In this document: in pieces, positions 10,518 through 29,026 of the stretch
Layout: each line of letters opens with the position of its first letter
Numbering within the stretch: the first letter of the stretch is position 1
Source: Planctomycetales bacterium
GTDB taxonomy: Bacteria; 4484-113; JAFGCY01
NCBI GenBank assembly: GCA_022646745.1
Contig: CP060262.1
Location: forward strand, 4,080,001 to 4,112,000
Direction: 5' to 3'
Length of the DNA: 32,000 nucleotides
Notes under the pieces: generated by a model
The model's input: only the letters and a program-made list of their open reading frames with translations
What the model was told of the DNA's origin: nothing
Database searches by the model: none
Position numbers and translations under genes: made by a program

Positions 10518-10557
10518 GTCTGGCAATGATATCGAGTAAGCCCGGAGGCAATAAAAA

Positions 10558-10920
10558 ATGCCAAGTGTACTGATTGTTGATGACGCGGCCTTCATGAGGA
10601 TGATGATCAAGGACATCCTCAGCAAGAATGGCCTTGAGGTTGCCGGTGAGGCCGAGAACGGCCAGGTTGCCGTCAACAAGTACAAGGAGCTCAAGCCCGA
10701 CCTGGTCACGATGGACATCACGATGCCCGAGATGGACGGCATTGCGGCACTCAAGCAGATCCTGTCCGAGGATGGCAAGGCCAAGGTCGTGATGTGCTCG
10801 GCGATGGGCCAGCAGCAGATGGTGATCGAGGCGATCCAGGCCGGAGCGAAGGACTTCATCGTCAAGCCCTTCAAGCCCGAGCGCGTGATCGAGGCCATCA
10901 CCAAGGTCATCAACAGCTAA
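10558..10920 (+). CDS. cheY: chemotaxis response regulator CheY
   Basis: Single receiver domain of 120 aa: LIVDDAAFMR, DLVTMDITMPEMDG (phospho-Asp), VMCSAMG, and DFIVKPF. GGAGG SD upstream. Confidence 0.9.
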   Translation: MPSVLIVDDAAFMRMMIKDILSKNGLEVAGEAENGQVAVNKYKELKPDLVTMDITMPEMDGIAALKQILSEDGKAKVVMCSAMGQQQMVIEAIQAGAKDFIVKPFKPERVIEAITKVINS

Positions 10921-10980
10921 TTACTTCTGGCAGCAAGAGGCTGCATATATCCGGTTGAGGAACCGGGAAGGCGGAAAGCA

Positions 10981-12375: not shown

Positions 12376-12378
12376 GCG

Positions 12379-13230
12379 ATGCTGGCAACACTGAAGCTAA
12401 AGCTTGCGATCCTGATCCGCCGCACAGGCACTCCCCTGCTCTGCCTGGCCTGCCTGCTGGCATTGGCGGCCCCTGCCTTCGCGCAGGAGCCGGAGAGCGC
12501 GCCAGCACCTGAGAACGGCCTGAGCGTAAGCGCCGGCGACCTGAATGTGACCGTCAACAGCGGTGATGGCGATGCGGCCAGCATCTTCAAGATCATCGCG
12601 CTGTTCACCCTGATGACGGTGGCCCCGACCCTGATCCTGATGGTGACACCGTTCACGCGTGTGATCATTGTGCTCAGCCTGCTGCGCAATGCGCTTGGCA
12701 CCCAGCAGAGCCCGCCCAACCAGGTGCTGATCGGCCTTGCTGTCGTGATTTCCGCATTCATCATGATGCCGCGCCTGGCGGTGATGAATGACGAGGTGAT
12801 CAAGCCCTACAACGCGGACGAGATTTCACTCGATGAAGCGCTGGCACTGGGCACCTCGCACCTGCAGGAATTCATGTACCCCAATACGCGCACTCCGCAC
12901 AAGCGCCTGTTCGCCCGACTGGCACGTATCGACTCCGATGAAATCCGGCTGGACTCACCGGACAACGTGCATGCCCTGCCGCTGCATGTGCTGCTGCCGG
13001 CCTTCATCATCAGTGAGCTGACAACTGCATTCCAGCTCGGCTTCGTGATCTACCTGCCCTTCCTGGTGGTGGACATGGTGGTGGCCTCGATCCTGATGAG
13101 CATGGGCATGATGATGCTGCCACCGGTGCTGATCTCGCTGCCCTTCAAGCTCTTGATGTTCATCATGGCCAACGGCTGGGCTGCGATCATCGAGGGCCTC
13201 GTCTCCAGCTACTGGGTCAGCCCAGGCTGA
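12379..13230 (+). CDS. fliP: flagellar type III export apparatus protein FliP
   Basis: LFTLMTVAPTLILMVTPFTRVIIVLSLLRNALGTQQSPPNQVLIGLA is the FliP signature. C-terminal PFKLLMFIMANGW is also present. Confidence 0.9.
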   Translation: MLATLKLKLAILIRRTGTPLLCLACLLALAAPAFAQEPESAPAPENGLSVSAGDLNVTVNSGDGDAASIFKIIALFTLMTVAPTLILMVTPFTRVIIVLSLLRNALGTQQSPPNQVLIGLAVVISAFIMMPRLAVMNDEVIKPYNADEISLDEALALGTSHLQEFMYPNTRTPHKRLFARLARIDSDEIRLDSPDNVHALPLHVLLPAFIISELTTAFQLGFVIYLPFLVVDMVVASILMSMGMMMLPPVLISLPFKLLMFIMANGWAAIIEGLVSSYWVSPG

Positions 13231-13577: not shown

Positions 13578-15212
13578 TTACTTGGTGCCGTAGCGTTCCT
13601 CCATCGCCTTGCGGATCCGCTCACTGGCATCCGCCGCACCTTCCACGAACCAGCTGTGTTCGGGGCGGGCCAGCACTTCATCAATCGTCGCATCCACCGC
13701 ATCGGCCGCCGCAGTGTTGCCATCATGGCGGGCCTGTTCAGCCAGCTCGCGGGCCTGCGGAACCAGCTCCATGTAGAAGCGTTCCGCCACCTCATACATG
13801 CCGTGCCAGTGGGTGTAGTCCGGCGCCATCATGCTTGCACCATGGCGGGCGCGGCGGCCCTCATGGTGCCAGAGGTAGAACCATGTCCACTCGATTTCCT
13901 CATCGAACTGAGTCGGGGACACCAGTCCGTTGTCACTGAGGGACTTCATGATCGTCGTACCCGGCTTGGCAAACTTCTCGTTGTAGAGGATCACTAGGTT
14001 GTCATACTGGTCATAGAACTTGTTCACGTAGTCCGGGCTGTGGCAGTGGCTGCACACCAGCTTCATGCGGCTGCGCTTGGCATCCGCGGTATCCGCAATC
14101 TTCTCCTGGCGGGCCTGCGGGTCAGTCTCTGTGACGATCTTGTGGTCGGCATCAGTGTCCATGCGCACGGACACCGGCGGGCGGTTGGTCCAGGAGATGC
14201 GCTCGCCCGGGTCATGCGTGACCTCGCCGCCATTGCGGGAGTTGCCAGACATGTGGCAGGTGGCGCAGGTCGGGGCCGCGGAGTAGTCCACCCCAAGCAC
14301 CCATTTCTCCGCATCCAGGTTCATCTCATCCTTCAGGTCGCGGAAGGCCACGCCATGCTTGCTTTCGTTGTAGATCTCCTCCTGCGGGTGGTCCGGGCCG
14401 AGGTGGCACTTGCCGCAGTTCTCCGGCTGCCGCGCGCGGCGCGGGCTGAAGTCATGGCGGCTGTGGCAGGCGGAGCAGGAACCGCGGGAACCGTCGAGGT
14501 TCAGGCGGCCGATGCCGGTGTTGGGCCAGGTCTGCGGGTCAAGCTCAGGCTTGCCCTTCGGGTCGCGCTTGACCATTGCCAGCACCGTCTGGTCCGTCGG
14601 CATGCCCTTCTCGTCAGGCTTCAGCTGCTCGAAGGTGATGATGCTGCCGTCGGTGCCGACCAGGCCGACCTTGCCGCCGTGGCACTGCTGGCAGCCCGAG
14701 TTGGCACTGGCCATGCCGCGCACGCTGGCAACGTCCATGCCGGGTGTTGGGCTGTGGGGGTTGAACTCCATCCGCGCACCTTCCACCGTCTCAGCGAGGA
14801 AGTTGTCAAGCGAGGCGAGGATGTTCCCGGCGGAGCTGTGGTGGCTCTTCTGGAACTGCTGGCTCTCCTTCGGATGGCACTTCGAGCAGTCCATCGGTGT
14901 GACGACCGTGGCAATCAGCTGGCCATAGTGGTCAAAGGCGTCCGCCTCACCCTGCTTGGCCTCATGGCACTCGTAGCAGGCCACACCCTTCTCGGCATGC
15001 GTGCTGCCCGTCCAGTGCGACACGATGCCGGGGGTCTCCTTGGTGTGGCATTCGACGCACTTGCTGGACGAAGCCGGAGAGGAGATGTGCTTCGGCGCCT
15101 GGCCGGTCTCGACCCGGCGCCGGCTGACCTCCATCGCCTGCACCAGCAGCAGCGACACCAGGAAGATGAATCCCAGCACCGCGATCACGATCTGTTTCAT
15201 GTTCAAAGACAT
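13578..15212 (-). CDS. octahaem c-type cytochrome, hydroxylamine oxidoreductase (HAO) family
   Basis: Eight CxxCH motifs: CVECH, CYECH, CSKCH, CQQCH, CSACH, CGKCH, CATCH, CSHCH. HAO-like C-terminal region: WFYLWHHEGRRARHGASMMAPDYTHWHGMYE. N-terminal signal/anchor: MKQIVIAVLGFIFLVSLLLV. AAGGAG SD favours the ATG at 15212, with 15218 as the alternative. Confidence 0.8.
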   Translation of the reverse strand: MSLNMKQIVIAVLGFIFLVSLLLVQAMEVSRRRVETGQAPKHISSPASSSKCVECHTKETPGIVSHWTGSTHAEKGVACYECHEAKQGEADAFDHYGQLIATVVTPMDCSKCHPKESQQFQKSHHSSAGNILASLDNFLAETVEGARMEFNPHSPTPGMDVASVRGMASANSGCQQCHGGKVGLVGTDGSIITFEQLKPDEKGMPTDQTVLAMVKRDPKGKPELDPQTWPNTGIGRLNLDGSRGSCSACHSRHDFSPRRARQPENCGKCHLGPDHPQEEIYNESKHGVAFRDLKDEMNLDAEKWVLGVDYSAAPTCATCHMSGNSRNGGEVTHDPGERISWTNRPPVSVRMDTDADHKIVTETDPQARQEKIADTADAKRSRMKLVCSHCHSPDYVNKFYDQYDNLVILYNEKFAKPGTTIMKSLSDNGLVSPTQFDEEIEWTWFYLWHHEGRRARHGASMMAPDYTHWHGMYEVAERFYMELVPQARELAEQARHDGNTAAADAVDATIDEVLARPEHSWFVEGAADASERIRKAMEERYGTK

Positions 15213-15231
15213 TGCCATCTCCTTGGCCCGC

Positions 15232-16281
15232 CTAGTGGGCGACGAGCGCTTCCCAGACAGTCAGCCCGACGATTGCCAGTACTGCGAGGATCCCGATGAA
15301 TACGCTGGCTTCACTGCCAGGCCGGCGGCGGCGGATCGCGCCGTCAATCCATGGCCAGGCGAACATCAGGAACACGATTGCCCCGGTCGACATGATCGCC
15401 ACGCGCTCCGGGAACAGCTTCAGCCAGCGGAACACCACGTAGAAGTACCACTCCGGCTTGATCACTTCCGGCGTTGTCAGCGGGTCGGCGCGGTGGCCCA
15501 TCTCCGCCGGCAGCACCGTTGCCAGCACGGTCAGCAGGATCACCAGCGTGGTGCCGATGATGATTTCGGTGTAGAGGTGGTCCGGCAGGAAGTTGAAGGT
15601 CTTCCGCTCCTGCCGCTTTTCCTCCTCGCCCTCCAGCTCGGTCACACCCTGGATGCGGATCAGCACTATGTGCAGCGCGAACACCGCGAGGATCGCCATC
15701 GGCAGCGCCGCGCCGTGCAGGATGAAGAAGCGGCTGAGCGTATGGGAGTTGTAGCTGTCCCCGGCCAGCAGCATCTTCTTCATCACGCCGCCGACCAGCG
15801 GTACGTTGTCAGCGATGTTGGCACCGACGGTTGCCCCCCAGTAGCTGAGCTGCTCATACACCAGGCTGTAGCCTGTGAAGCCGCAGATCACCGTCAGGAA
15901 CAGCAAGAGCATGCCCACCACCCAGCTCATCTCACGCGGCTTGCGGTAGGCCCCGGTGAAGTACACGCGCATCTGGTGCAGCACTACGGCGGCGATCATC
16001 AGGATCGCGCCCCACTTGTGCACACTGCGGATGTACCAGCCGTAGGCCACCTCGTCAGTGATGTAGGCCACGCTGTCCCAGGCATCCGCCGGGCTGGCCT
16101 GGTAGTAAAAGGCCAGCAGGATGCCGGTGAACAGCTGCACGAAGAACAGGTAGGCCGCGGTGCCGCCGAGGCAGAACCACCAGCGTTTCAGGTGGTTCGG
16201 CACGGGTTCGTTCGTCAATTCGCGGATCTGATCCCCGGTGACGGGGATGCGGTCGGTCCACCAGCGCTGCAGTGCATTCAC
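15232..16281 (-). CDS. cytochrome b (fused b6 plus subunit-IV-like) of a Rieske/cyt b complex
   Basis: The GTG at 16281 lies 1 nt after the Rieske stop. The track's longer N-terminal extension overlaps the Rieske gene. Helix B His pair has 13-residue spacing (HKWGAILMIAAVVLH), and helix D pair has 14-residue spacing (HGAALPMAILAVFALH, b6-type). PEWYFY motif in the C-terminal part. Confidence 0.85.
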   Translation of the reverse strand: MNALQRWWTDRIPVTGDQIRELTNEPVPNHLKRWWFCLGGTAAYLFFVQLFTGILLAFYYQASPADAWDSVAYITDEVAYGWYIRSVHKWGAILMIAAVVLHQMRVYFTGAYRKPREMSWVVGMLLLFLTVICGFTGYSLVYEQLSYWGATVGANIADNVPLVGGVMKKMLLAGDSYNSHTLSRFFILHGAALPMAILAVFALHIVLIRIQGVTELEGEEEKRQERKTFNFLPDHLYTEIIIGTTLVILLTVLATVLPAEMGHRADPLTTPEVIKPEWYFYVVFRWLKLFPERVAIMSTGAIVFLMFAWPWIDGAIRRRRPGSEASVFIGILAVLAIVGLTVWEALVAH

Positions 16282-16282
16282 C

Positions 16283-16822
16283 TCAGGCCTCCTGTGAGCC
16301 GCCGCCTGGCAGCTTCTCCATCGGCACGAGGATGTACAGCAGGCCGTCCTCAACCTTGAGCGGGAAGCGCGGCAGGCTCTGTCCGGCCTCCCCGGGAGGG
16401 CCACCGATGCCCTTGCCGCTCGGGTCGAATACGCCGTTGTGGCAGGGGCAGAAGTAGCGGTCGTTGTGTGCTTCCCAGTGCACCTGGCAGCCGAGGTGCG
16501 GGCAGGTGCTGGATAGCGCGATGAAGTCCGTCGCTTCCCCGCTCTCAGCCTGGCGTGTGATGGTCACCTTGTCACCGCGCGGGGCCCGGTAGGCCAGTGA
16601 ATCGCCCTTCAGGAAGCTGGCCACTGCAGCCACGAACTGCCATTCCTGCTCAGCGGGGTTTGCCGGGTAGAGGAATTCGACGGCCATCGAAGCAAAGCGG
16701 CCATAGCCTGCCAGCAATGCCGCCAGCATGGCCAGGCCACTGGCCTGGCGAAGGAATCCCCGCCGTGATCCTTCCTCAGGAACACCTGACGGAACTGATT
16801 GCTCGTCCTCATGGGCTGCCAT
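16283..16822 (-). CDS. Rieske 2Fe-2S subunit with twin-arginine signal
   Basis: Tat motif SRRGFLRQ. Rieske boxes CPHLGC and CPCHNGVF. Confidence 0.9.
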   Translation of the reverse strand: MAAHEDEQSVPSGVPEEGSRRGFLRQASGLAMLAALLAGYGRFASMAVEFLYPANPAEQEWQFVAAVASFLKGDSLAYRAPRGDKVTITRQAESGEATDFIALSSTCPHLGCQVHWEAHNDRYFCPCHNGVFDPSGKGIGGPPGEAGQSLPRFPLKVEDGLLYILVPMEKLPGGGSQEA

Positions 16823-19107: not shown

Positions 19108-20460
19108 ATGTCTCACGCAGTCAGTGAATTCATGGAGCAGGTCAAGGCAAAGAACCCGGCCGAGCCGACCTTCCACCAGGCAGTGCAGGAGGTCGCCGAG
19201 TCGGTCCTGCCGATCTACGACCAGCACCCTGAATTCGTTGAGGCCCGCATCCTCGAGCGCATCGTCGAGCCTGAGCGTGTGCTCATGTTCCGCGTGCCCT
19301 GGGTTGACGACAGCGGCAAGGTGCAGGTCAACCGCGGCTTCCGCATCGAGATGAACAGCGCGATCGGCCCCTACAAGGGCGGCCTGCGCTTCCACCCGAG
19401 TGTCAACCTCGGCATCCTGAAGTTCCTCGCCTTCGAGCAGGTGTTCAAGAACAGCCTGACTACGCTGCCGATGGGCGGCGGCAAGGGCGGCTCCGACTTT
19501 GACCCGAAGGGCAAGAGTGACAACGAGGTGATGGCGTTCTGCCAGGCCTTCATGTCCGAGCTGTTCCGCCACATCGGCCCGCGCACCGACGTGCCCGCCG
19601 GTGACATCGGCGTCGGCGGCCGTGAGATCGGCTACCTGTTCGGCATGTACAAGAAGCTGCGCAACGAGTTCTCCGGCGTGCTGACCGGCAAGAGCCCCGA
19701 CTGGGGCGGCAGCCTGATCCGCCCGGAGGCCACCGGCTACGGCAACGTGTACTTCGCGCAGGAGATGCTGGCAACGAAGGGCCATGAGGTCAAGGGCCGC
19801 AACGCCCTGATCAGCGGCAGTGGCAACGTGGCCCAGTACTGCGCCGAGAAGGTGATCCAGCTCGGCGGCAAGGTGATCACGATGTCCGACTCCGACGGCT
19901 TCATCGTCGACCGCGACGGCATCGACGCCGAGAAGCTGGCCTGGATCATGGACCTCAAGAACAACCGCCGCGGCCGCATCAGCGAGTACACCGAGAAGTT
20001 CGGCGGCGAGTACGGCGACCGCAGCAACGGCAAGAGTGAATGGTATGTGGACGGCTGCACGCTGGCCTTCCCCTGCGCCACCCAGAACGAGGTCGATGTC
20101 AACGAGGCCAAGGCGATCGTCGACAACGGCATCATCTGCGTGAGCGAGGGTGCCAACATGCCCTGCACTCCCGAAGCCTTCGCACACATCCAGGCGAACG
20201 GCCTGCTCTACGCACCGGGCAAGGCGTCCAATGCCGGCGGCGTGGCCACCAGCGGCCTGGAGATGGCGCAGAATGCCGCCTTCAGCTACTGGACCCGCGA
20301 GGAGGTCGACGGCAAGCTGCACAACATCATGAAGAACATCCACCAGCAGTGCACCAGCACCTGCGAGAAGTACGGCAAGCCGGGCGACTACGTGTTCGGT
20401 GCCAACGTGGCTGGCTTCATCAAGGTTGCCAATTCGATGCTGGCCCAGGGCGTCGTCTAG
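19108..20460 (+). CDS. gdhA: NADP-specific glutamate dehydrogenase
   Basis: KGGLRFHPSVNLGILKFLAFEQVFKNSLTTLPMGGGKGGSDFDPKGKSD and the overall 450-aa architecture match hexameric GdhA. The ATG at 19108 with GGAGGA 7 nt upstream is preferred over the track's TTG at 19093. Confidence 0.9.
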   Translation: MSHAVSEFMEQVKAKNPAEPTFHQAVQEVAESVLPIYDQHPEFVEARILERIVEPERVLMFRVPWVDDSGKVQVNRGFRIEMNSAIGPYKGGLRFHPSVNLGILKFLAFEQVFKNSLTTLPMGGGKGGSDFDPKGKSDNEVMAFCQAFMSELFRHIGPRTDVPAGDIGVGGREIGYLFGMYKKLRNEFSGVLTGKSPDWGGSLIRPEATGYGNVYFAQEMLATKGHEVKGRNALISGSGNVAQYCAEKVIQLGGKVITMSDSDGFIVDRDGIDAEKLAWIMDLKNNRRGRISEYTEKFGGEYGDRSNGKSEWYVDGCTLAFPCATQNEVDVNEAKAIVDNGIICVSEGANMPCTPEAFAHIQANGLLYAPGKASNAGGVATSGLEMAQNAAFSYWTREEVDGKLHNIMKNIHQQCTSTCEKYGKPGDYVFGANVAGFIKVANSMLAQGVV

Positions 20461-20574
20461 GAGCGACGTTGCGAAGGCGAAGCCAAAGCTGCGTCAGCTC
20501 TTCCGGAATCAACAGAGCCCGCGCAGCTTCGCAACGCGGCTCCGGTAAAAGGAGCGACCTTGCGAAGGCGAAGG
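20460..20574. repeat. direct plus inverted repeat structure 3' of gdhA
   Basis: GGAGCGACgTTGCGAAGGCGAAG (20460-20482) recurs at 20551-20573 with one mismatch. Copy 1 pairs (15/17) with CTTCGCAACGCGGCTCC at 20527-20543, giving a stem-loop of about 84 nt. Confidence 0.65.
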
Positions 20575-20622
20575 AGGCCAGGCTGCCAGCCTGGCAAGTG
20601 CCAAGTCAACGACTTGGCCTCC
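20573..20622. repeat. 50-nt REP-like double-hairpin element (copy B)
   Basis: GGAGG-CCAGGCT-gcc-AGCCTGG-CAAGT-GCCAAGTC-aac-GACTTGGC-CTCC. Same architecture as 29029-29078, with compensatory stem substitutions. Confidence 0.75.
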
Positions 20623-20635
20623 ATCAATGAACCAC

Positions 20636-20665
20636 AAATGGGACCCCGCGGGGTCCCATTTTTTT
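20636..20665. terminator. bidirectional rho-independent terminator between gdhA and the TPR-TIR gene
   Basis: Perfect 20-nt palindrome TGGGACCCCGCGGGGTCCCA (20639-20658) followed by TTTTTTT on the plus strand and preceded by AAA. It sits between convergent genes, and the minus-strand gene's stop codon lies in the T-run. Confidence 0.8.
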
Positions 20666-22253
20666 ATCCCTCGATCCAGCTCACCAGCTTGTCAATGAAG
20701 GCGTTGAAGAACTCCGTCGTGAATGACATGCCATTCACCTGGCACAGCCCGCGGATGTCCTCAGGCAGGTCCTCAGGCTTCGGCCAGCTGAAGCCGTCCA
20801 TCATCACCGGGATGATATGCACGCCGTGGTGCAGCGCGGTGGCCAGTTCCTGCCTGACAACGTCATCCGGGTCGGAACTGCAGCGCTCGAGGAAATCAGG
20901 GGTCAGCAGCACCAGCATGTGCCGGCTGTAGCGGATCGCCTCCTTCAGGTCCTCGGCGAAATGGCCCTTGTGCAGGCCGTCCTGGTCACGGAATACCGTC
21001 TTGCCGCGGATCTCCATATGGGCCTGCAGCAGCATCGCGTTGGCAAGCGCCGGTTCCCGCCGGTAGCAGATGAACACGTCATATTTCTTCTCGTTGTCAG
21101 GAATCACGCTGACTGCCTCGGGCTGGCTGGCGATCTGATCAGCCACCAGCCTGTCCGGACTGGGTGACATCCAGTCCCTGAGGGTCTCCATTATGAACGG
21201 GGGCTGCTGAATGCCCTGCTTCGTGCAGGTCTCAATGGCCCGGTAGACTTCCTTCAGTGCCTCATCCAGCCTGCCCGCCCCCTGCAGGCAGATCGCCCGG
21301 CCGAAGTACAGCATCCATTCCTCTTCATCACCGCCTTCCCTGATGGTTTCCTCGGCCAGTTCGTAATAGTGCAGGGATTCCTCGATCCTGCCCAGCCTGC
21401 CCAGTGCATCTGCCATACCGATCATAGCCGAGGAAGCCAGTTGACCACTCTGTTCACGGTGCAGGCGCATAGCCTCCTGGAAAAGCTCAAGGGACTGCTG
21501 GGGCCTGCCCATCTTCAGGAGAATCGCGCCCCGGTTTCCGACTAGTGCGGCTGGAAGCGGCCGCTGCATCTCATCAAATATCTCTTCTACCCGGTCCAGC
21601 ACTGCCAATGCATCCTCGTACCGCCCGATCTGCACAAGCAGGTAGGCCCGCAGGTTCATCAGCGCCATCAGCGGCTGCTCATCCTGCTCAATTGCCAGCT
21701 TCTCAGCGCGGTCGAGCCAGTGCAGGGCCTTGTCAACCTGTAACCTGTCGGAATAGAGCTGTGCCCTGAAGCCAGATACCCCCTGTGAAAGGGGCTTTCC
21801 CTGCGCCATGCACAGCTCATCTGCCCTGTCCAGGCTGGCCAGGGCGTCGTCATACGAGATCAGGTGCCTCTGGATGGTTGCCAGCATCAACTCCAGCTTG
21901 GGATCCACAGGCATGCCCTGGTCCAGGAAGGCCCGGCGCGCCAGTTCAACTTGCTGCTGGCCCTCGGCGTAATGGTGCAAGCTGATCAGGCAGCCGCCAA
22001 TTCGCATCAGGATCCGCGGATCCTCCGGTTTTCCCTGCTGCTTGAGGATCTCAATGGCCTGCTGGGCGGCGCTCAGCGCTTCTTCGTAGCGCATCAACAT
22101 GAACAGCAGGTCAGACTTGCGGTCCAGCAGTTCCGGATCAGCTGGCTGCCCAGCCGCCTCCAGTCTCTGTTCCTCGCTGAGAAGCTGCTCCAGTTGCTGG
22201 ACAGGAGTGAGTGAGTTCTCCACCCAGCAATTATTGCATTGGCATTGCAGCAC
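20664..22253 (-). CDS. TPR-repeat (about eight 41-42-aa repeats) protein with C-terminal TIR domain
   Basis: The C-terminal ~141 aa (nt ~20667-21089) is TIR-like: KKYDVFICYRRE...TVFRDQD...HMLVLLTPDFLERCSSDPDDVVRQELATAL. The N-terminal ~370 aa has a ~41-aa periodicity: RYEEAL / HYAEGQ / SYDDAL / QVDKAL / RYEDAL / RPQQSL / RIEESL / RLDEAL. GTG start at 22253, with alternative GTG at 22223. No NTPase, TM or signal sequence. Confidence 0.8.
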   Translation of the reverse strand: MLQCQCNNCWVENSLTPVQQLEQLLSEEQRLEAAGQPADPELLDRKSDLLFMLMRYEEALSAAQQAIEILKQQGKPEDPRILMRIGGCLISLHHYAEGQQQVELARRAFLDQGMPVDPKLELMLATIQRHLISYDDALASLDRADELCMAQGKPLSQGVSGFRAQLYSDRLQVDKALHWLDRAEKLAIEQDEQPLMALMNLRAYLLVQIGRYEDALAVLDRVEEIFDEMQRPLPAALVGNRGAILLKMGRPQQSLELFQEAMRLHREQSGQLASSAMIGMADALGRLGRIEESLHYYELAEETIREGGDEEEWMLYFGRAICLQGAGRLDEALKEVYRAIETCTKQGIQQPPFIMETLRDWMSPSPDRLVADQIASQPEAVSVIPDNEKKYDVFICYRREPALANAMLLQAHMEIRGKTVFRDQDGLHKGHFAEDLKEAIRYSRHMLVLLTPDFLERCSSDPDDVVRQELATALHHGVHIIPVMMDGFSWPKPEDLPEDIRGLCQVNGMSFTTEFFNAFIDKLVSWIEG

Positions 22254-22274
22254 GGCAGGTCGTATGCTGAATGG

Positions 22275-23411
22275 ATGGGATGGATCAGGGACAGCATCCG
22301 GGATTACGTCGAGCTATACCGGCCATTGCGCCGCAGCTTCATCGGCTGGCGCAGCCCGCTTGTGTTGTGGCCTGGCATTTTCGTTTTCGCGCTGGCAATC
22401 ACGAGTGCAATCCTGCAGCAGCAGGTTGATCCAAACCAACTCAGTTGGAACCAGGGCTTCCTGCAATTCCTGATTATTGAACTGACCCCGCCGCTGATCA
22501 TGCTTTGCATGATCACTGCCTGGTTCAATATCGCCCTTGCAAACAGCCACAATGCCCAGACCCTGCTGGAACCCGCGCTGATGGGTGGCAACAGGGTAAG
22601 TGGATGGTTCCGTTTCCTGCTGGGCCTGCACAGTGGTCTGGTTCCGCTGCTTGTTGCCGTATGTGGACTGGCAATCGTGCACCTGTCTGAAAAGCCTCCA
22701 TACTGGGGTTTTCGCATTGTCGATGTCGTCGACAACTTCGGATACCTCCTTTGCTGCGTTGCCTGGACCGCGATCTGCCTCGCCGTTTACTGTGTGACAG
22801 CCAGCCGGCGATTCACATTCTTCCTGTTCGCTCTGTTTGCCATAGAGCTTGTCTTCCGTGTATTCCTTGCCAGCAGCAATTTCCCGCGCTACTGGGACTC
22901 GTTTGGCCTGTCCGGCCAGCGGCTGGATGGCTATTACTACGTCCTGCTGGTTCTGGCCCTGCTCCTGCCCCTGTCAGTGATGCTCGGCCACTTGTTCAAA
23001 CGGGACACCATGCTGATGCTCAGCACCGCCTTCCTGTCCCTGGTTCGTTTGGTGCATATCGCACTGCTCAGCATCGGGTTTGCCGACCCAGCCGTGTACG
23101 GCGGTGGGATCTATACGGCGCTGTATGAGTTTGCCAACGATGACACAACCGGCGACCTGATCGAAGGCGTCTGGATCCTGAACGGCAGCATCTCTGACTC
23201 ACTCTTCAGCCTGGAATTTACTGACAATTACATGATGCGTTCACTGATTGGCGATCCATATCTCGTATTCATGCACCAGCTTCGCCTGTTTTCCGGCAGC
23301 CCGCTTGCCATGGCGGCCCTGGCCCTGCTCGGAAACCTGGCCTGGCTGTTCCTCGTCTGCGTCGTCTGCCTGTATTGTGTACGCAGGCATGAAAGGGAGA
23401 TGGTGAGCTGA
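22275..23411 (+). CDS. paralog 1 of a six-member polytopic membrane protein family (unknown family)
   Basis: The ATG at 22275 gives MGWIRDSIRDYVELYRPLRRSFIGWR, aligned with the paralog 2 N-terminus. The track's TTG at 22239 would overlap the divergent TIR gene. About 8 hydrophobic segments. C-terminal helix LGNLAWLFLVCVVCLYCVRRHERE. Confidence 0.7.
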   Translation: MGWIRDSIRDYVELYRPLRRSFIGWRSPLVLWPGIFVFALAITSAILQQQVDPNQLSWNQGFLQFLIIELTPPLIMLCMITAWFNIALANSHNAQTLLEPALMGGNRVSGWFRFLLGLHSGLVPLLVAVCGLAIVHLSEKPPYWGFRIVDVVDNFGYLLCCVAWTAICLAVYCVTASRRFTFFLFALFAIELVFRVFLASSNFPRYWDSFGLSGQRLDGYYYVLLVLALLLPLSVMLGHLFKRDTMLMLSTAFLSLVRLVHIALLSIGFADPAVYGGGIYTALYEFANDDTTGDLIEGVWILNGSISDSLFSLEFTDNYMMRSLIGDPYLVFMHQLRLFSGSPLAMAALALLGNLAWLFLVCVVCLYCVRRHEREMVS

Positions 23412-23412
23412 G

Positions 23413-24597
23413 ATGGCTGCTTCAACCTCGATCATTTCCGAGTACCAGGAGTTCTACTCCCCGATCCAGCGCAACTTCGCCGGCTGGCGGCGCGGCGCGC
23501 TGCCCGTCATCATCGCCCTGCTCTGCCTGCTGGCACTGTGTGCGCTGCTGTTCATGGCCGGCTGGTGGCTGCCCGGGCCCACCCAGAACCTTGCGGAGCT
23601 GTTCCGTGACATCGGCGAATTCTGCCGTGCACTGCTCCTGCCCGCCGCCTTGACCGGCTGGGTGGTGCTGGCGCTTGCCAACCTGCGCATCGCTGACAGC
23701 CTGCTGGATGAGGCCCTGCTCGGCCGGCGCGGCAGCAGCGCATCCTTCCGCTTCATCCTGACCTTGCACTCCGGTCTCTGGCCCGTGCTCGTCGGCGCAA
23801 CGCTGCTGGCAACGGTGCTCGCCGCCCAGTCGTTCCAGGCCGCGAATGCCACCGAGCCCAGCTGGCTCGGGCCGTCCTACAACTGGGACTCGATGATGGA
23901 GCATGTGCGCGGCGAACTGCTGGTCAGGCTTGGCAACTTGCCGGGGGAGCTGGCGATGTACTGCGGCTTCACTGCGATCGCACTCGCGCTGGCCTGCATG
24001 GCGCGGCGCAGCTCGACGGTCTGGTTGGTGTTCTGCCTGCTCAACCTGCAGCTGCTGCTGGACATCCTCGCGGCCTTCCTCAATGTCAACGTCTATGCGC
24101 TGTATTGGCAGGACACGATGTACAGCACCCGCCCGCTGCTGTTCCTGCTGATGCTGGCCGGGGCTGCATTGGTCTACGGCCTGCCGCTGATCGCCCTGAA
24201 GGCTTCCGACCGGCCTCTGCTGTACGCATTCGCCTGGCTGTCCATCATGCGCACCGCTGACCTGTTCCTCGCGCTCAGTCGCAACGGCTTCGTGGCTTCC
24301 GTGCAGTATGACGACTCACGCATGCCGCTTTTGAACTTCAGCTGGCATGCCAACCTCGCGATGAAGTACCCGCTTTTCAGCTGCCTGCCGGAGAACTTCA
24401 ACCGGATCTACGGCTTCGGGCGCGGGATCTTCGAGGACCGCTACATGCTGATGTTCATGGACCAGGTGCGCGAGGGCCTGCCCTGCGGCAGCTGGGGGAT
24501 CGCAGTGGCCTGGCTTGGCAACCTGGCCTGGCTGGCAGCAGTGCTCGCGGTCTGCCTGTACAGCGTGCGCCGCTTCGAGAAGGAACAGATCACCTGA
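23413..24597 (+). CDS. paralog 2 of the membrane protein family
   Basis: The ATG lies 1 nt after the paralog 1 stop. Motifs: SEYQEFYSPIQRNFAGWRR; ALANLRIADSLLDEALLGRRGSSASFRFILTLHSGLWP (compare paralog 1 ALANSHNAQTLLEPALMGGNRVSGWFRFLLGLHSGLVP); C-terminal LGNLAWLAAVLAVCLYSVRRFEKE. Confidence 0.75.
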   Translation: MAASTSIISEYQEFYSPIQRNFAGWRRGALPVIIALLCLLALCALLFMAGWWLPGPTQNLAELFRDIGEFCRALLLPAALTGWVVLALANLRIADSLLDEALLGRRGSSASFRFILTLHSGLWPVLVGATLLATVLAAQSFQAANATEPSWLGPSYNWDSMMEHVRGELLVRLGNLPGELAMYCGFTAIALALACMARRSSTVWLVFCLLNLQLLLDILAAFLNVNVYALYWQDTMYSTRPLLFLLMLAGAALVYGLPLIALKASDRPLLYAFAWLSIMRTADLFLALSRNGFVASVQYDDSRMPLLNFSWHANLAMKYPLFSCLPENFNRIYGFGRGIFEDRYMLMFMDQVREGLPCGSWGIAVAWLGNLAWLAAVLAVCLYSVRRFEKEQIT

Positions 24598-25718
24598 TGG
24601 CGACGCTGGCTGACAAGCTGCACGGACCAAGGCAATCTGCCATCCCGCTGGACAGTGTGATGAAGCGCTGGTGGCGTAGGCGCGGACTGCTGTGGCTATT
24701 GGCGATGCTCTTGCCGGCGATGGTCTATGCCATTGCGATTACCGACCAGGTATTCAGTGCTGCGCCATCGCGGATCTCCCAGTGGATCATTTTCTGGGCT
24801 TATAACCGGCTGGTCACCACGGGTATTGTGGTGCTTTTGCTGGCATTCCTGGCGGCGATCTGGCATGAGTTCGGCATCATGCGCCGGATGGCGCGGGAAG
24901 CGGCAGCCCCGGATCCCGGCTTGGGCAGCAGGGAGTTCTTCGTGCGCAGCATGAGGCACCTGCCCTGGCTAGCAGCGGGCTTTGTACTCACCCGCCTGGT
25001 TATCATGCTGCCATTCCTGTTTGAGTCTAACTATCATGCGTGGTTTTCCGGCATAGGCAAATTCAGTTACATCCCGGACCTGGTTGAGCACAGTGTCCGA
25101 GACCTGTACCTTGCCTTGTTCCTCAGCGTGGCAGCAGCAGCCCTGTACTGTTACCGTGGCATGGCCAGGCACCTGCTTGTGCTGGCATATCCGGCTTGCA
25201 AGATGCTCGTGTGGCCATTCAAGATTTCGCCAAACACCTGGTACTGCGGCAGTGAAGGTATTCCAGTTTCTGAATTGATCATGGCCTGGCTGACAGCCGC
25301 CATCACTCTCGCCGGCATCTATCACCTGCTAGTCTCATACTCAGCAACTGTCAGCAGCCCGGCACCGACACGGATCAGGAATCGCTACAGAGCCATTCCG
25401 GTAATGGCAACCCTGTTCATCCTGTCCTTCCAGGCCGTGAATGAACTGCTGCCCGACACAGTTAATACGCAGGACATTGGCTTCTGGATGAGCGAATCAC
25501 TATTTTCTTGCCCAACATATCTGTTAATCGCAACTGGCAACCACGGTGATGTGATGGAAGCGGCATTGACCCTCAGTTTCGGCTGGGGTCCTGTCGTTCA
25601 TGCGGGCTGGTACTGTGTCCCGTTGGCAATCCTGATCAATTTGTCAGTAGTGGCCATGCTGTGGTTCGCAGCATTTCTGGCCCTGCCGGCACCTGAAGGA
25701 GACCAGGCACGGGCATGA
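24597..25718 (+). CDS. paralog 3 (most divergent) of the membrane protein family
   Basis: TGATG overlap with paralog 2. Motifs: MKRWWRRRGLLWLLA and the loop RRMAREAAAPDPGLGSREFF. The C-terminal helix is diverged (ILINLSVVAMLWFAAFLALP). The second half is visibly less GC-rich. Confidence 0.65.
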   Translation: MATLADKLHGPRQSAIPLDSVMKRWWRRRGLLWLLAMLLPAMVYAIAITDQVFSAAPSRISQWIIFWAYNRLVTTGIVVLLLAFLAAIWHEFGIMRRMAREAAAPDPGLGSREFFVRSMRHLPWLAAGFVLTRLVIMLPFLFESNYHAWFSGIGKFSYIPDLVEHSVRDLYLALFLSVAAAALYCYRGMARHLLVLAYPACKMLVWPFKISPNTWYCGSEGIPVSELIMAWLTAAITLAGIYHLLVSYSATVSSPAPTRIRNRYRAIPVMATLFILSFQAVNELLPDTVNTQDIGFWMSESLFSCPTYLLIATGNHGDVMEAALTLSFGWGPVVHAGWYCVPLAILINLSVVAMLWFAAFLALPAPEGDQARA

Positions 25719-26821
25719 GCACGATCAAATCACAGCTCGCCGACTACCGCGAACTGGACGCCCCGCTTAAGCGCAGCATGCGCCGCTGGTGGAAGGGTAC
25801 GGGACGGCTGTGGCTGGTCGCTATCGGCGCGTGTGGTTTCCTGTCAATCGCCAGCATTTTCCTCGTCCGTCAGTTGATCACCGGCAATTCCAGCCTGACA
25901 ATGTTCTTCCTGTCAGTCGGGGCCTTTGCCAGTTATTGCCTGCCCGCATTGACCCTTGTCGCCTGCTTCCATACCATGGCCAGCCGCTGCCGCCAGCTGC
26001 GCCAGCTCAGCGATGAAGCAGCCCTGCCTGAGAGTGCAGCAATCTGGCAGAGCTGGCTCGTCGGCTCGCTCGCTTCCTGCTGGCCACTGCTGGCAGCCCA
26101 GACTTTGACAATCCTGCTGCGTGACAGCTTCCTCCAGATGTTCATCAATACCCAGCTGTCCCGCAAGGCGGACCTGCTGCGCATAATCACCGGCGGCCTG
26201 GACGAGGGATTGCTGCTGGTCTTCATGGCCCTGCTGGCAGGCACATGGCTGCACACCGGACGGCGCTCACGGCTGGATTACCTGTTCCTGGCCTGCCTCT
26301 GTGCCGCCTCAATCGCATCCGCGATCGGAGTGCTGTTCTGGCGGATAGGACAACTCGGTGGCGGCGGTTACTTTGAGGACCTCGACCCCGTGAACCTGGC
26401 AACCGGCAGCATCCTGGCAATCGCAGTGCCAGCCTGGGTGCTGCTTTCAAGGAAGTCCGGCCCCCGTCCGCAGTTCACAATGTCGGTGTTTGCAACGATC
26501 CGGCTACTGGAACTGTTTGCGATGTTCACCGCTGGTTCGGCCAGCATCATCTGGGCCAGGCTGCTGATGCTGGAGGAGATCCTGACTGGCTGGCAGGCGG
26601 TGTTCACGCGGATGCCGTTCGGCTACGGTGAACACACATTCCACTACTTCGACCATTCCGAGGGCGGCACAGCGCTCTTCCTGTTCTGGCAATCAGGACT
26701 GGCTGTCAGGACCGGTCCGATCGGCTACATGCTGGCCCTGCTGCTCAACCTCGCCTGGCTGGCGATCGTGTTCCTGTTCTGCCGCTGGGCGGTGGGCCGG
26801 AGTGCGGTGCGGGAGGAGTGA
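25715..26821 (+). CDS. paralog 4 of the membrane protein family
   Basis: ATGA overlap with paralog 3. Motifs: ADYRELDAPLKRSMRRWWKGTGRLWLVA, the loop LRQLSDEAALPESAAIW, and C-terminal LLNLAWLAIVFLFCRWAVGRSAVREE. Confidence 0.75.
   Translation: MSTIKSQLADYRELDAPLKRSMRRWWKGTGRLWLVAIGACGFLSIASIFLVRQLITGNSSLTMFFLSVGAFASYCLPALTLVACFHTMASRCRQLRQLSDEAALPESAAIWQSWLVGSLASCWPLLAAQTLTILLRDSFLQMFINTQLSRKADLLRIITGGLDEGLLLVFMALLAGTWLHTGRRSRLDYLFLACLCAASIASAIGVLFWRIGQLGGGGYFEDLDPVNLATGSILAIAVPAWVLLSRKSGPRPQFTMSVFATIRLLELFAMFTAGSASIIWARLLMLEEILTGWQAVFTRMPFGYGEHTFHYFDHSEGGTALFLFWQSGLAVRTGPIGYMLALLLNLAWLAIVFLFCRWAVGRSAVREE
26744..26800 (+). repeat. conserved 3'-terminal nucleotide block of paralog 4
   Basis: CTCAACCTCGCCTGGCTGGCGATCGTGTTCCTGTTCTGCCGCTGGGCgGTGGGCCGG matches 28946-29002 at 56 of 57 nt. 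Confidence 0.9.
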
Positions 26822-26823
26822 AG

Positions 26824-27915
26824 GTGTGTAGTTCTGAATCAACCAGAAAAGTGCTGAGTTCAATTAACAGAGCCACTCACGCTCATATGGCTTTGTGGTG
26901 GCAAAGATACGGAATTTACTGGATTACTGCAATTTTGGTCATCTGGTTTATCGATACCGCCTCCTACCAGCTTGCAGGACGCGGTCATGTATATCCTGAC
27001 TTGTCTTCGCTAACCTACGATATTTGGCCATTTACGAGGCTTCTGAAGGGGGTTATTCCTGTTGTTGCCTTCGTCGCTGCTTCCTCTCACAAGTTGAAAC
27101 TGCTTGAGGATCACATCCTAAACGATGGGATTCCCACCAGCTTTGATGTCAGAAGGCACTCGTTCAGTATTGTCGTGTATGCCGGCATTCCAATACTGTT
27201 GGTTGTCCTTGCGGCAGGATCCATCTCTTGGGCTTACGTCAAAGGCAGATTGACTGGCATGTCGTTTCCTGACTGGTACTACGCGATCTGCTTATCAATA
27301 GAGCAGGTTTCTGCCTCTGCCCTCATTTCGCTGATTGCAGTTGCCATTATGTGCATGACCCGTTCTAAGTCTAGTCTGGCAGCAATTCTCTTTATCATGA
27401 TGTTGCACCACCTGAATGAACCATTCGTGAGACTGTCAGATTCCAGAGGAACTTACCTCTACAGAATGGAGGACGCTGCCGGACTGTCTCCGTTCCTTTT
27501 TACAGTGGGCAGTGTTAGTGCAATCGTCCTGCTGGCAGTTTTCCTGTTGACGATATCATCCCCAAACTTTAGGCTGAGTACTACGCCACTGGTTGCCATA
27601 TGCATCATCCGCGGTCTCGAAACCTATTTTGGTTACAGATCGCTTTCGAACCTTGATATGGTTGTTCCCGACATTGCATTCATGGCAATACTGCGCGGAT
27701 TCCAGCTGGTGTTCGTAACCGGACCGATGAATGTCGATGTAACTCTCTTTCCTGTTCCGGATGAGATTCTCGCCCACCCACCATGGAATCCCTACACGTT
27801 TGAGGGAACAGAATGGAATTATCTTTATGCAGTTATTGGCAATCTGGCCTGGGTTGCCTGTGTGTTCCTCTTCTGCCGCTGGGCGGTGGGCCGCAGTGCG
27901 GGACGGGAGGCATAG
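26824..27915 (+). CDS. paralog 5 of the membrane protein family, with AT-rich body
   Basis: GTG at 26824, 7 nt after GGAGG in GGGAGGAG. An alternative GTG at 26818 overlaps the paralog 4 stop. Motifs: HMALWWQRYGIYWITA, the loop LEDHILNDGIPTSFDVRR, and C-terminal IGNLAWVACVFLFCRWAVGRSAGREA. Confidence 0.7.
   Translation: MCSSESTRKVLSSINRATHAHMALWWQRYGIYWITAILVIWFIDTASYQLAGRGHVYPDLSSLTYDIWPFTRLLKGVIPVVAFVAASSHKLKLLEDHILNDGIPTSFDVRRHSFSIVVYAGIPILLVVLAAGSISWAYVKGRLTGMSFPDWYYAICLSIEQVSASALISLIAVAIMCMTRSKSSLAAILFIMMLHHLNEPFVRLSDSRGTYLYRMEDAAGLSPFLFTVGSVSAIVLLAVFLLTISSPNFRLSTTPLVAICIIRGLETYFGYRSLSNLDMVVPDIAFMAILRGFQLVFVTGPMNVDVTLFPVPDEILAHPPWNPYTFEGTEWNYLYAVIGNLAWVACVFLFCRWAVGRSAGREA
27862..27901 (+). 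repeat. conserved 3'-terminal nucleotide block of paralog 5
   Basis: GTGTTCCTcTTCTGCCGCTGGGCGGTGGGCCGcAGTGCGG differs at 2 of 40 nt from 26768-26807, even though the rest of the gene is strongly diverged and AT-rich. Confidence 0.85.
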
Positions 27916-27919
27916 CTGG

Positions 27920-29026
27920 ATGAGAGGCATATGGCAGACGCAACTTGTTGAGTACCGCGAGTTTGCTGCACCGCTGAATCACCATTTCCGCCGCTGGTGG
28001 ACCGGTCCGGGCCGTGCCTGGCTGTATGCCCTGATCGGCGTGCAGGCGGCGGCAATTGTCAGTCTCTGGCAGGCCTGGGCATTCAATACCGCCAGCCGGT
28101 CCGCCACATTGTTCTTCGCATCCTTCATTGCCAGCTCACTGGCACAGCTGTTCACGGTCGTGCTGGCTTATCTGTCCGGCCTGGCATTCCAGTCCAGCAT
28201 GAAGGAAATGGCACGGGATGCCGTGCTGCCAGCCGGTTCCGCCGTTGCCAGGCTGATGTTCTTCGGAGCACTGGTCTGCGCTTCCCCTCCGTTTTACTGC
28301 CACCTGCTTTACCTGACCATTCTGCAGATGATCCGCGCCAGTTACACTTCAAGCTTCCTCGGGAACTCCATCTCGCCGGGCGAGATCCTGCAGTCCCTGT
28401 TGTACGAAATCCTGCCCATGCTTGTGATCATCTGCTGCAGCCTGGCTGCCAATGTTCATGCAAGGGGCCGCAGGCGCTCACTGGCAATCATGGCTGTATA
28501 TGTCGCGATCACCACCGCCAGCTGGCTGGTGCTCGTGTTCAGGCTGCCAATGCCGTTTGCCAACATGGATTCCTATTCCAGCTTTGCGCTGTTTCCCTTC
28601 ATCGGGGTCTGCTTCGCCCTTGCCCTGATTGCCACGCTTGTGCAGGAGTCCGCGGACCGGTCTCCCGCATCCAGGGCAGCCACTCCGGCCCTGCTGCTGC
28701 TCTGTTTGCTTACCCTGTTCCTGATGGTCGTGCGGCAGGAATCCGTTGTCAGCAGGCCGGCCGGGCTCATCATCAGTGAAATCAGCTATGGATTCTTTGC
28801 GAGCATTACTTCAGCGCCCTTCCACTTCAGGCCAGCAGCGGACGCCACATTCTCATTCTCCGACAGCATAAGCGGCCTTGCACTTGGCTGGATACCCAAT
28901 ACATATTTTCCCGTGACGGCATTCGGTGATGCCCTGGCCAGCATGCTCAACCTCGCCTGGCTGGCGATCGTGTTCCTGTTCTGCCGCTGGGCTGTGGGCC
29001 GGATCAGCTGGCGGGAGGAGGAATGA
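27920..29026 (+). CDS. paralog 6 of the membrane protein family
   Basis: ATG at 27920, 4 nt after the paralog 5 stop and 9 nt after GGGAGG. The track's 27761 start overlaps paralog 5. Motifs: VEYREFAAPLNHHFRRWWTGPGRAWLYA, the loop MKEMARDAVLPAGSAVARL, and C-terminal MLNLAWLAIVFLFCRWAVGRISWREEE. Confidence 0.75.
   Translation: MRGIWQTQLVEYREFAAPLNHHFRRWWTGPGRAWLYALIGVQAAAIVSLWQAWAFNTASRSATLFFASFIASSLAQLFTVVLAYLSGLAFQSSMKEMARDAVLPAGSAVARLMFFGALVCASPPFYCHLLYLTILQMIRASYTSSFLGNSISPGEILQSLLYEILPMLVIICCSLAANVHARGRRRSLAIMAVYVAITTASWLVLVFRLPMPFANMDSYSSFALFPFIGVCFALALIATLVQESADRSPASRAATPALLLLCLLTLFLMVVRQESVVSRPAGLIISEISYGFFASITSAPFHFRPAADATFSFSDSISGLALGWIPNTYFPVTAFGDALASMLNLAWLAIVFLFCRWAVGRISWREEE
28946..29002 (+). 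repeat. conserved 3'-terminal nucleotide block of paralog 6
   Basis: Matches 26744-26800 at 56 of 57 nt. Confidence 0.9.

Follow-up and report, generated by a model that had tools for sequence, protein, structure and literature searches.

A tetratricopeptide-repeat protein with a SARM1-type TIR domain in a planctomycete: a candidate self-contained sensor-effector, most likely independent of the membrane-gene array beside it

In the chromosome of an uncultured planctomycete (Planctomycetales bacterium, GCA_022646745.1, contig CP060262.1, positions 4,080,001 to 4,112,000; this whole stretch of 32,000 nucleotides is called the window below), a gene for a protein that joins tetratricopeptide repeats (TPR) to a domain of the Toll/interleukin-1 receptor (TIR) type stands head-to-head with six tandem genes for membrane proteins. 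Does this layout represent a single two-part system, as a preliminary description of the locus had proposed, or two units that came to lie side by side? Our results point to the second answer. The TPR-TIR protein would be a self-contained sensor-effector, consisting of a TPR solenoid, a linker, and a SARM1-clade TIR NADase, that works independently of the membrane array, a reading that we hold with moderate confidence. The window DNA is 100% identical to contig JAGRNS010000023.1 of GCA_020440665.1, a metagenome-assembled genome (MAG) of a Planctomycetales bacterium.

The TPR-TIR coding sequence, as given by the list of open reading frames and its translation, occupies 20664-22223 on the minus strand and encodes 519 amino acids plus the stop codon. 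An in-frame alternative, GTG 22253, adds 10 residues, and the preliminary description had left the choice between the two starts open, at 20-50 bp from the first membrane gene. Because the N-termini of 13 homologues (MD.PLT.QQELEQ) line up with MENSLTPVQQLEQ and one public gene call on identical DNA also gives 519 amino acids, GTG 22223 is most likely the true start, which sets the distance at 51 bp. Residue numbers below refer to this 519-residue form unless the 529-residue form (start 22253) is stated. The gene is intact, and its product is 98.3% identical to the copy in a sister MAG, UBP7 HKST-UBA01. With 8 non-synonymous and 7 synonymous differences, dN/dS between the two copies is about 0.34, which would place the window copy under moderate constraint, an estimate drawn from just 15 differences.

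The domain content of the protein agrees with what had been described earlier, a TPR array followed by a C-terminal TIR domain with no NTPase. Tandem helix-turn-helix repeats match the Pfam TPR models TPR_12 (7.3e-20) and TPR_1 (5.5e-14), along with TPR_16, TPR_2, and others, and identify the product as a TPR protein. The TIR_2 model (PF13676) matches residues 393-501 of the 529-residue form (E = 6.5e-11, 43.2 bits against a cut-off of 28), above the Pfam gathering threshold for the TIR domain superfamily. No P-loop or NTPase domain was found in the Pfam or NCBIfam scans of the protein, and only 29 residues precede the first repeat. The TPR-TIR protein is cytoplasmic and soluble; no signal peptide, transmembrane segment, or known secretion-associated domain was found in it.

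A structural model was obtained with AlphaFold2 from an alignment of 14 TPR-TIR family members (mean pLDDT 89.7, pTM 0.81). A conserved N-terminal helix (residues 7-23) is followed by eight predicted helix pairs that begin at residues 30, 69, 108, 147, 186, 225, 264, and 303. The earlier count of about eight repeats thus stands, and the period is exactly 39 residues in the model rather than the 41-42 first described; the canonical TPR repeat has 34. These eight in-register repeats (residues 30-341; 21201-22136, minus strand) are supported by Pfam, AlphaFold2, and the repeat listing, and Foldseek matches the solenoid to an 8-repeat consensus TPR and to OGT TPR structures. A conserved linker, F..ETLRDWM.P.P..LV..Q.ASQP.A...PDNE in the family alignment, comes next (residues 342-378; 21090-21200, minus strand) and is modelled as two short helices and then an extended segment. 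The remainder (residues 379-519; 20667-21089, minus strand) adopts a flavodoxin-like TIR fold in the model. The only segment of the model with pLDDT below 50, residues 416-418 in the BB loop, is consistent with a flexible loop.

Which TIR domains does this one resemble? The C-terminal 157 amino acids were compared with all PDB chains using phmmer, and the SARM1/TIR-1 TIR domains came out on top (E = 1.9e-27 to 3.6e-20), with query residues 19-157 mapping to SARM1 562-701. The next family outside SARM1/TIR-1 reached only 4.6e-4. In a separate alignment, the human SARM1 TIR is 38% identical to the window copy over 135 amino acids and 43% identical to P0003, one of its paralogs. When Foldseek overlays the predicted TIR on crystal structures of the SARM1 TIR, the TM score is 0.93-0.94 and the root-mean-square deviation 1.1 Å, at 35-36% identity. 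Full-length human SARM1 is also the top Foldseek match overall, where the TIR part alone superposes (global TM 0.25). By sequence and predicted fold, the closest solved relatives are therefore the enzymatic TIRs of the SARM1 clade, and the domain can be classed as SARM1-type. The closest bacterial TIRs outside the planctomycetes, those of transmembrane proteins from gut bacteria, are 38-43% identical to the window TIR, so that the TPR-TIR family, SARM1, and these gut TIR-transmembrane (TIR-TM) proteins appear from their sequences to be roughly equidistant members of one clade. The SARM1 TIR has been found to branch inside a bacterial TIR clade (PMC13142454).

The active site is largely kept. 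The glutamate of VVRQELATAL in the alpha-C helix, E459 (E469 in the 529-residue form; codon 20847-20849, minus strand), aligns with SARM1 E642 and is invariant in 14 of 14 family members. E642 is the residue changed in the catalytically dead structure 7cm7, 'Sarm1 E642A'. The alignment supports the catalytic position assigned to this glutamate in the preliminary description. Alignment with SARM1 likewise places the BB-loop region, VFRDQDGLHKGHFAE, at 20952-20996 (minus strand). Equivalents of SARM1 Y568, R569, R570, D594, G601, and F603 are invariant in the 14 family members, the last three being D413, G420, and F422 here. Because the putative catalytic glutamate and the BB-loop glycine and phenylalanine are retained, a NAD-cleaving function is plausible.

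The protein is not a solitary one. Searching a collection of 5.8 billion proteins returned about 16 full-length homologues with 35-45% identity, and a query of the same index with the TIR domain alone collected 201 candidates with 2 matches. A pattern scan of one genome per species (185,579 species) found the full-length architecture in two, UBP7 HKST-UBA01 with three loci and the MAG Planctomycetales bacterium Ww346 with eight, some of which hold two or three copies or fragments. Among the best 80 matches from 241 million metagenome records, all were TIR-only and no full-length member occurred. Genomes that carry the family have at least 6 to 9 copies, often in tandem arrays of 2 to 5 genes (L001, L003/L004, L010/L014, L015, and L021). 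The L001/L002 array, which encodes P0003 and contains four complete copies and a fragment, is assigned to the same genome as the window, which thus carries at least six copies. Two other family loci are syntenic between genomes, one in a DUF488-glyoxalase-cytochrome c neighbourhood and one beside DUF6754 and an aminotransferase. These data describe a lineage-specific multigene family of a small planctomycete/UBP7 clade, of which the window gene is one divergent paralog.

Divergence within the family is concentrated in the repeats. Mean pairwise identity is 36% in the TPR part, 51% in the linker, and 66% in the TIR domain, and repeat units are gained or lost among paralogs as whole blocks of about 39 residues. 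Divergence focused on the TPRs is what a set of receptors that differ in specificity would be expected to show.

We then turn to the neighbours. The six tandem paralogs opposite the TPR-TIR gene (22275-29026, plus strand, delimited by paralog alignment) encode an uncharacterised polytopic membrane protein and are considered here as context. The ATG of paralog 1 at 22275 matches both the public gene call P0028 (378 amino acids) and the N-termini of the other paralogs; paralog 5 is P0029. Pfam, PADLOC, and NCBIfam searches gave no model that matches the membrane proteins. An AlphaFold model (pLDDT 74.5) gave no Foldseek match with E below 0.1, the best likeness, a loose one, being to the ABC-2 permeases NosY and PmtD at TM 0.3-0.4. 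When 1.84 billion cluster representatives were scanned in full with HMMER, only 27 clusters of the family were recovered, and the metagenome scan with V[FY]LFCRWA, a motif taken from a 9-sequence alignment of the membrane family, gave no confirmed relative.

Two of these clusters could be placed in genomes, L055 (GCA_041395205.1) and L056 (JGI metagenome 3300061720), and both provide a direct comparison. Upstream, each has the same order as the window, with flagellar genes up to fliO-fliP, then three small genes, and then gdh; L055 additionally shares the multihaem cytochrome, cytochrome b, and Rieske genes. Downstream, each continues as in the window with NifU, RDD, a TPR protein, FolD, and CysRS. 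Within this conserved fliMNOP neighbourhood, the gdh-NifU interval of L055 and L056 holds one membrane gene and no TPR-TIR gene. The L056 metagenome also yields a TPR-TIR locus, L005, on a different contig, and the UBP7 sister MAG has a family locus in synteny with it. The reverse comparison was made at about 20 other TPR-TIR loci from the window genome, the sister MAG, MAG Ww346, and two metagenome organisms, and none had a membrane paralog within the flanking DNA examined at each locus. The adjacency recurs solely at locus L013 of the sister MAG. Because its flanks are 93-95% identical to those of the window at the DNA level, L013 represents the same insertion event in the same species-level lineage and counts as one event, not as independent evidence.

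Since synteny fails in L055 and L056 and at the roughly 20 other TPR-TIR loci, the TPR-TIR gene and the membrane array are most likely functionally independent, and the functional link and co-regulation put forward in the preliminary description find no support in the comparison, a lack of conserved synteny being among the outcomes which that description had itself named as refuting it. The junctions tell the same history. The gdh gene ends in a terminator hairpin, AAATGGGACCCCGCGGGGTCCCATTT, with perfect 13-nt arms and a T-run, located by the terminator scan at 20636-20661 (plus strand) and abutting the TPR-TIR stop codon in the window. In L055 and L056, gdh is followed by a homologous hairpin, GGGGACCCTG(C/T)G(G/A)GGTCCCCTTTT, and the next gene is the membrane gene. 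This G+C-rich hairpin, kept at all three loci, marks the left edge of the inserted TPR-TIR gene. Because L055 and L056 retain the hairpin and the membrane gene without a TPR-TIR gene, the latter was gained only in the lineage of the window, by insertion between the terminator of gdh and the membrane gene. Around the TPR-TIR gene, a search for insertion scars and mobile-element signatures found only short repeats at chance level, and the window contains no tRNA, Rfam match, or mobile-element gene.

The spacer itself had been the other argument for a joint system. The starts of the TPR-TIR gene and of paralog 1 are separated by 51 bp (22224-22274), and a shared operator had been proposed from the palindrome GCAAT-t-ATTGC and repeated CATTG motifs. 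Both motifs are present: the palindrome, GCAATTATTGC, at 22227-22237, and GCATTGGCATTGC at 22236-22248, with the direct repeat GCATTG occurring twice at 22236-22247. Their frequency is what chance would give. Perfect 5+1+5 palindromes number 61 in the 32-kb window, 9 of them at 20000-23000; for palindromes with 5-bp arms and a loop of 0-4 nt, chance predicts 0.44 in a stretch of 51 bp. When at most 2 mismatches are allowed, the direct-repeat pattern matches 3 times where 2.2 would be expected. On the plus strand, 22239-22268 weakly resembles a sigma-70 promoter (TTGGCA-18-TATGCT), one site where 0.7 is expected by chance. A shared operator was rejected as unsupported, with the palindrome, the CATTG repeats, and the promoter match all at chance level. 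The sigma-70-like match is the only one in the region and stops 7 nt short of the paralog 1 ATG; if it were real, transcription of paralog 1 would start near its ATG and give a leaderless mRNA. The spacer differs from that of the sister MAG by one substitution. Within 51 bp, two promoters must overlap or sit inside the opposite gene, and some transcriptional interference or coupling between the divergent units is physically plausible.

We therefore consider it quite improbable that the TPR-TIR protein belongs together with the six membrane paralogs in one co-regulated system in which TIR supplies sensing and signal, the membrane proteins act as effectors, and a common operator controls both. 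Elsewhere, TIR or other nucleotide-signal enzymes are coupled to membrane effectors such as SLATT (PMC7159879). The head-to-head arrangement over 51 bp is real and the adjacency is kept in L013, where the block of TPR-TIR gene, spacer, and paralog 1 start is 98.9% identical against 93-95% for the flanks. Set against this are the single, TPR-TIR-free membrane gene of L055 and L056, the other TPR-TIR loci that have no membrane paralog, the chance-level palindrome, and the derivation of the L013 arrangement from the same event. In addition, no SLATT, Thoeris, or PADLOC model recognises the membrane proteins, and the fold search gave nothing significant for them. Conserved co-occurrence across genomes, which a pairing of TIR with membrane effectors would lead one to expect, was not found.

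The same loci bear on whether the protein could be a secreted or contact-delivered NADase directed at other cells, with its immunity genes nearby. NAD-degrading toxins are common in interbacterial conflict, and, in principle, immunity proteins might be among the products of the variable array beside the gene. The membrane genes, however, are ancestral at this locus, without any TIR, the tandem arrays of the family consist of TPR-TIR genes themselves without paired small immunity genes, and the protein has none of the export features sought above. Such a role is extremely unlikely.

How would a self-contained TPR-TIR protein work? We infer a sequence of steps in which the eight-repeat TPR superhelix would both bind a ligand or protein and exert autoinhibition. 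At rest, the TIR domains would be held apart by the solenoid and linker. A trigger, most likely a phage protein or a protein of another invader, may bind the TPR groove, whereupon TIR domains could associate through the BB loop and complete an active site around E459. NAD+ would then be cleaved to nicotinamide and ADP-ribose or a cyclic ADP-ribose (ADPR) isomer, which would deplete NAD+ and arrest the infected cell, or yield an ADPR-type signal.

An immune or abortive-infection-like role is probable because of the analogy with TIR-II and other single-protein TIR defences and because the family pattern resembles a receptor repertoire. In the TIR-II system of E. coli, TIR and TPR occur in a single protein or in two, phage protection needs a conserved residue of the TIR active site, and defence works by killing the cell or arresting its growth; an ATPase is missing from about 70% of these systems (PMC11350192). 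The window protein has TIR and TPR in one polypeptide, as TIR-II may, and is likewise ATPase-free, a likeness in domain architecture to the systems described in that study. It differs from TIR-II in that its TIR belongs to the SARM1 clade, its gene lies outside a defence island, and its family is confined to a small planctomycete/UBP7 clade in tandem multi-copy arrays.

Several observations weigh against this reading of the protein as an immune NADase. The host is an uncultured MAG, and NADase activity, activation by a TPR ligand, and the immune role are all put forward by inference. In the active site, Val stands at the position of SARM1 W638 and Thr at that of H685 (where most family members have Thr or Ser), so that activity or product could differ. 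We take W638 and H685 to be important second-shell residues of the SARM1 active site; a structure of an H685A mutant, 6o0u, exists. At the family loci, no defence island, integrase, phage gene, or mobile element was seen, and the genes alongside are of the housekeeping kind, such as gdh, NifU, DUF488, glyoxalase, cytochrome c, aminotransferase, and ThrRS. No curated defence model in PADLOC or NCBIfam matched above threshold: the best PADLOC match was TIR-only at 7.9e-07, PADLOC ThsB reached 6.8e-4, and NCBIfam ThcB4 scored 27 bits against a cut-off of 220. Homologues were not found in phage genomes, and the matches on plasmids were TIR-only, on four megaplasmids. Finally, the insertion of the TPR-TIR gene and the growth of the membrane array from a single gene to four or six are both derived in the same lineage, which leaves room for a lineage-specific link between the two.

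Two of these points favor readings in which the protein is not an immune enzyme. The replacement of W638 and H685, together with the generic use of TPRs as scaffolds, would suit a non-enzymatic interaction scaffold, with the TPR-TIR protein as an assembly or regulatory adaptor; most animal TIR adaptors are non-enzymatic protein-interaction scaffolds. We regard this as very improbable. The equivalents of the catalytic Glu, the YRR motif, D594, G601, and F603 are invariant though the paralogs are otherwise 35-45% identical, and among solved structures the enzymatic SARM1 TIR comes closest, whereas scaffold TIRs score E of about 1e-4 to 0.8 in the PDB search.

The setting of all loci among housekeeping genes rather than defence islands would fit a physiological switch of the SARM1 kind, the main rival to the immune reading. 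The solenoid would sense an endogenous metabolite or stress, and the TIR would lower NAD+ or produce a cyclic ADPR-type signal leading to dormancy or development. In SARM1, the ARM domain senses nicotinamide mononucleotide and NAD+, and the order of an alpha-solenoid followed by a SARM1-type TIR parallels SARM1, whose full-length form is the top Foldseek match; the linker and TIR are strongly conserved as well. Nevertheless, 6 to 9 or more divergent paralogs per genome, fast-evolving TPRs, and an extremely patchy distribution fit a receptor repertoire better, Pfam finds no SAM oligomerisation domains, and the superposition on SARM1 is poor outside the TIR domain. We consider a physiological switch unlikely and retain the self-contained immune sensor-effector as the preferred account.

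How does the self-contained sensor-effector relate to known proteins? SARM1, its closest solved relative by sequence and predicted fold, also carries an alpha-solenoid N-terminal to the TIR. SARM1 is an animal protein with an ARM solenoid and tandem SAM domains, whereas the TPR-TIR protein is bacterial and multi-copy, with eight 39-residue TPRs and no SAM or ARM domain in Pfam. Lacking tandem SAM domains, it offers no evidence for a SARM1-like preformed octamer. Membership of the SARM1 protein family proper (ARM-SAM-SAM-TIR) was rejected, with only TPR families in Pfam and a global TM of 0.25.

TIR domains with a catalytic glutamate are used by Thoeris and by some STAND/Avs-type proteins, and Avs/STAND proteins employ TPR arrays as sensors. 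Neither assignment holds for the window gene. Thoeris combines a ThsB TIR with a ThsA-type effector (SIR2/SLOG, Macro-TM, or others); no ThsA-type partner lies near the TPR-TIR gene, the neighbours being gdh and membrane proteins without a family match, and the ThsB/ThcB4 models are far below their cut-offs. STAND/Avs NTPases are built around a central P-loop NTPase domain (NB-ARC or AAA-like); membership was rejected from the missing NTPase domain and the 29 residues before the first repeat, and a retron-TIR system was rejected on the Pfam, PADLOC, and NCBIfam scans.

The gut TIR-TM proteins (L024-L032, from gut or anaerobic-digester Clostridia and Bacteroidales; about 490-650 amino acids) are the closest non-planctomycete relatives of the TIR. 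They share with the window TIR the motifs KYDVFISYRR, DRC...D.V..E, and EFFxAFIDKL, and at 39-45% identity they are as close to the human SARM1 TIR as the window TIR is. They carry the TIR on the N-terminal side of a single transmembrane helix, beyond which lies a long extracytoplasmic region, and they have no TPRs; unlike the window TIR, they keep the Trp equivalent to W638 (DWVRxE).

Proteins that combine a repeat sensor with a TIR domain and no NTPase are thus already known, and what is new here is a narrowly distributed family with a SARM1-clade TIR. If the proposed activity is true, the protein would be a compact NTPase-free sensor-NADase whose effector is as close to SARM1 as any bacterial TIR in the searches made. 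It would offer a simple bacterial model for helical-repeat gating of a SARM1-type TIR, and its family would represent an immune-receptor-like expansion in an uncultured planctomycete lineage. The head-to-head layout reflects a local insertion, not a conserved system, and the membrane array is the more unusual object, to be judged separately. A bolder proposition, which we think unlikely, is that these proteins are a bacterial counterpart of the SARM1 design, with NADases gated allosterically by an alpha-solenoid and deployed as a germline-encoded, NTPase-free, NLR-like receptor repertoire of differing TPR specificities. Still less likely is that the gdh-NifU interval is a lineage-specific conflict hot spot where the TPR-TIR protein and the reshuffled membrane paralogs form a new two-part system.

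The membrane array has features of its own. Copy number varies from one (L055 10001-11104; L056 10001-11152) to four (L013 5356-9949) and six in the window. When the window is compared with L013, identity is 93-97% in the flanks and in paralogs 2 and 6, and other genes have taken the place of those in the middle; at the paralog 1 position, the proteins are only 37% identical after the first ~100 nt. The array is thus a mosaic that is rapidly reshuffled, even between near-identical strains. The block of TPR-TIR gene, spacer, and first ~100 nt of paralog 1 mentioned above (20656-22372 against L013 9852-11568) suggests, in its higher identity, stronger constraint or a recent recombinational exchange. 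Every member of the membrane family ends, beyond its final transmembrane helix, in an invariant V[FY]LFCRWAVGRS. At the DNA level, paralogs 4, 5, and 6 share 83-92% identity over their last ~90 nt (26732-26822, 27840-27893, and 28934-29023, respectively), and the proteins overall are just about 20-26% identical. This likeness of 3' ends suggests gene conversion, a recombination site, or a strongly constrained C-terminal signal.

On the other side of the TPR-TIR gene, the gdh/TPR-TIR spacer contains, upstream of the terminator hairpin, an element of 17-24 nt in three copies (within 20459-20573). Two copies of AGGAGCGAC(G/C)TTGCGAAGGCGAAG are direct and 91 nt apart, and one is inverted at 20527-20543. 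The surrounding genes are chromosomal housekeeping genes (fliM, fliN, fliO, fliP, multihaem cytochrome, cytochrome b, Rieske, gdh, NifU, and RDD; window positions 13578-16822 and 8421-13230).

Elsewhere in the family, a small CarboxypepD_reg-like protein with the motif GQCNLKGAV is encoded directly before the genes of one TPR-TIR subclade; the window copy has no such partner. This small gene lies at L001 1935-2267, L003 11558-11956, L004 2884-3285, L005 9475-9909, L022 267-599, and L021 7715-8413.

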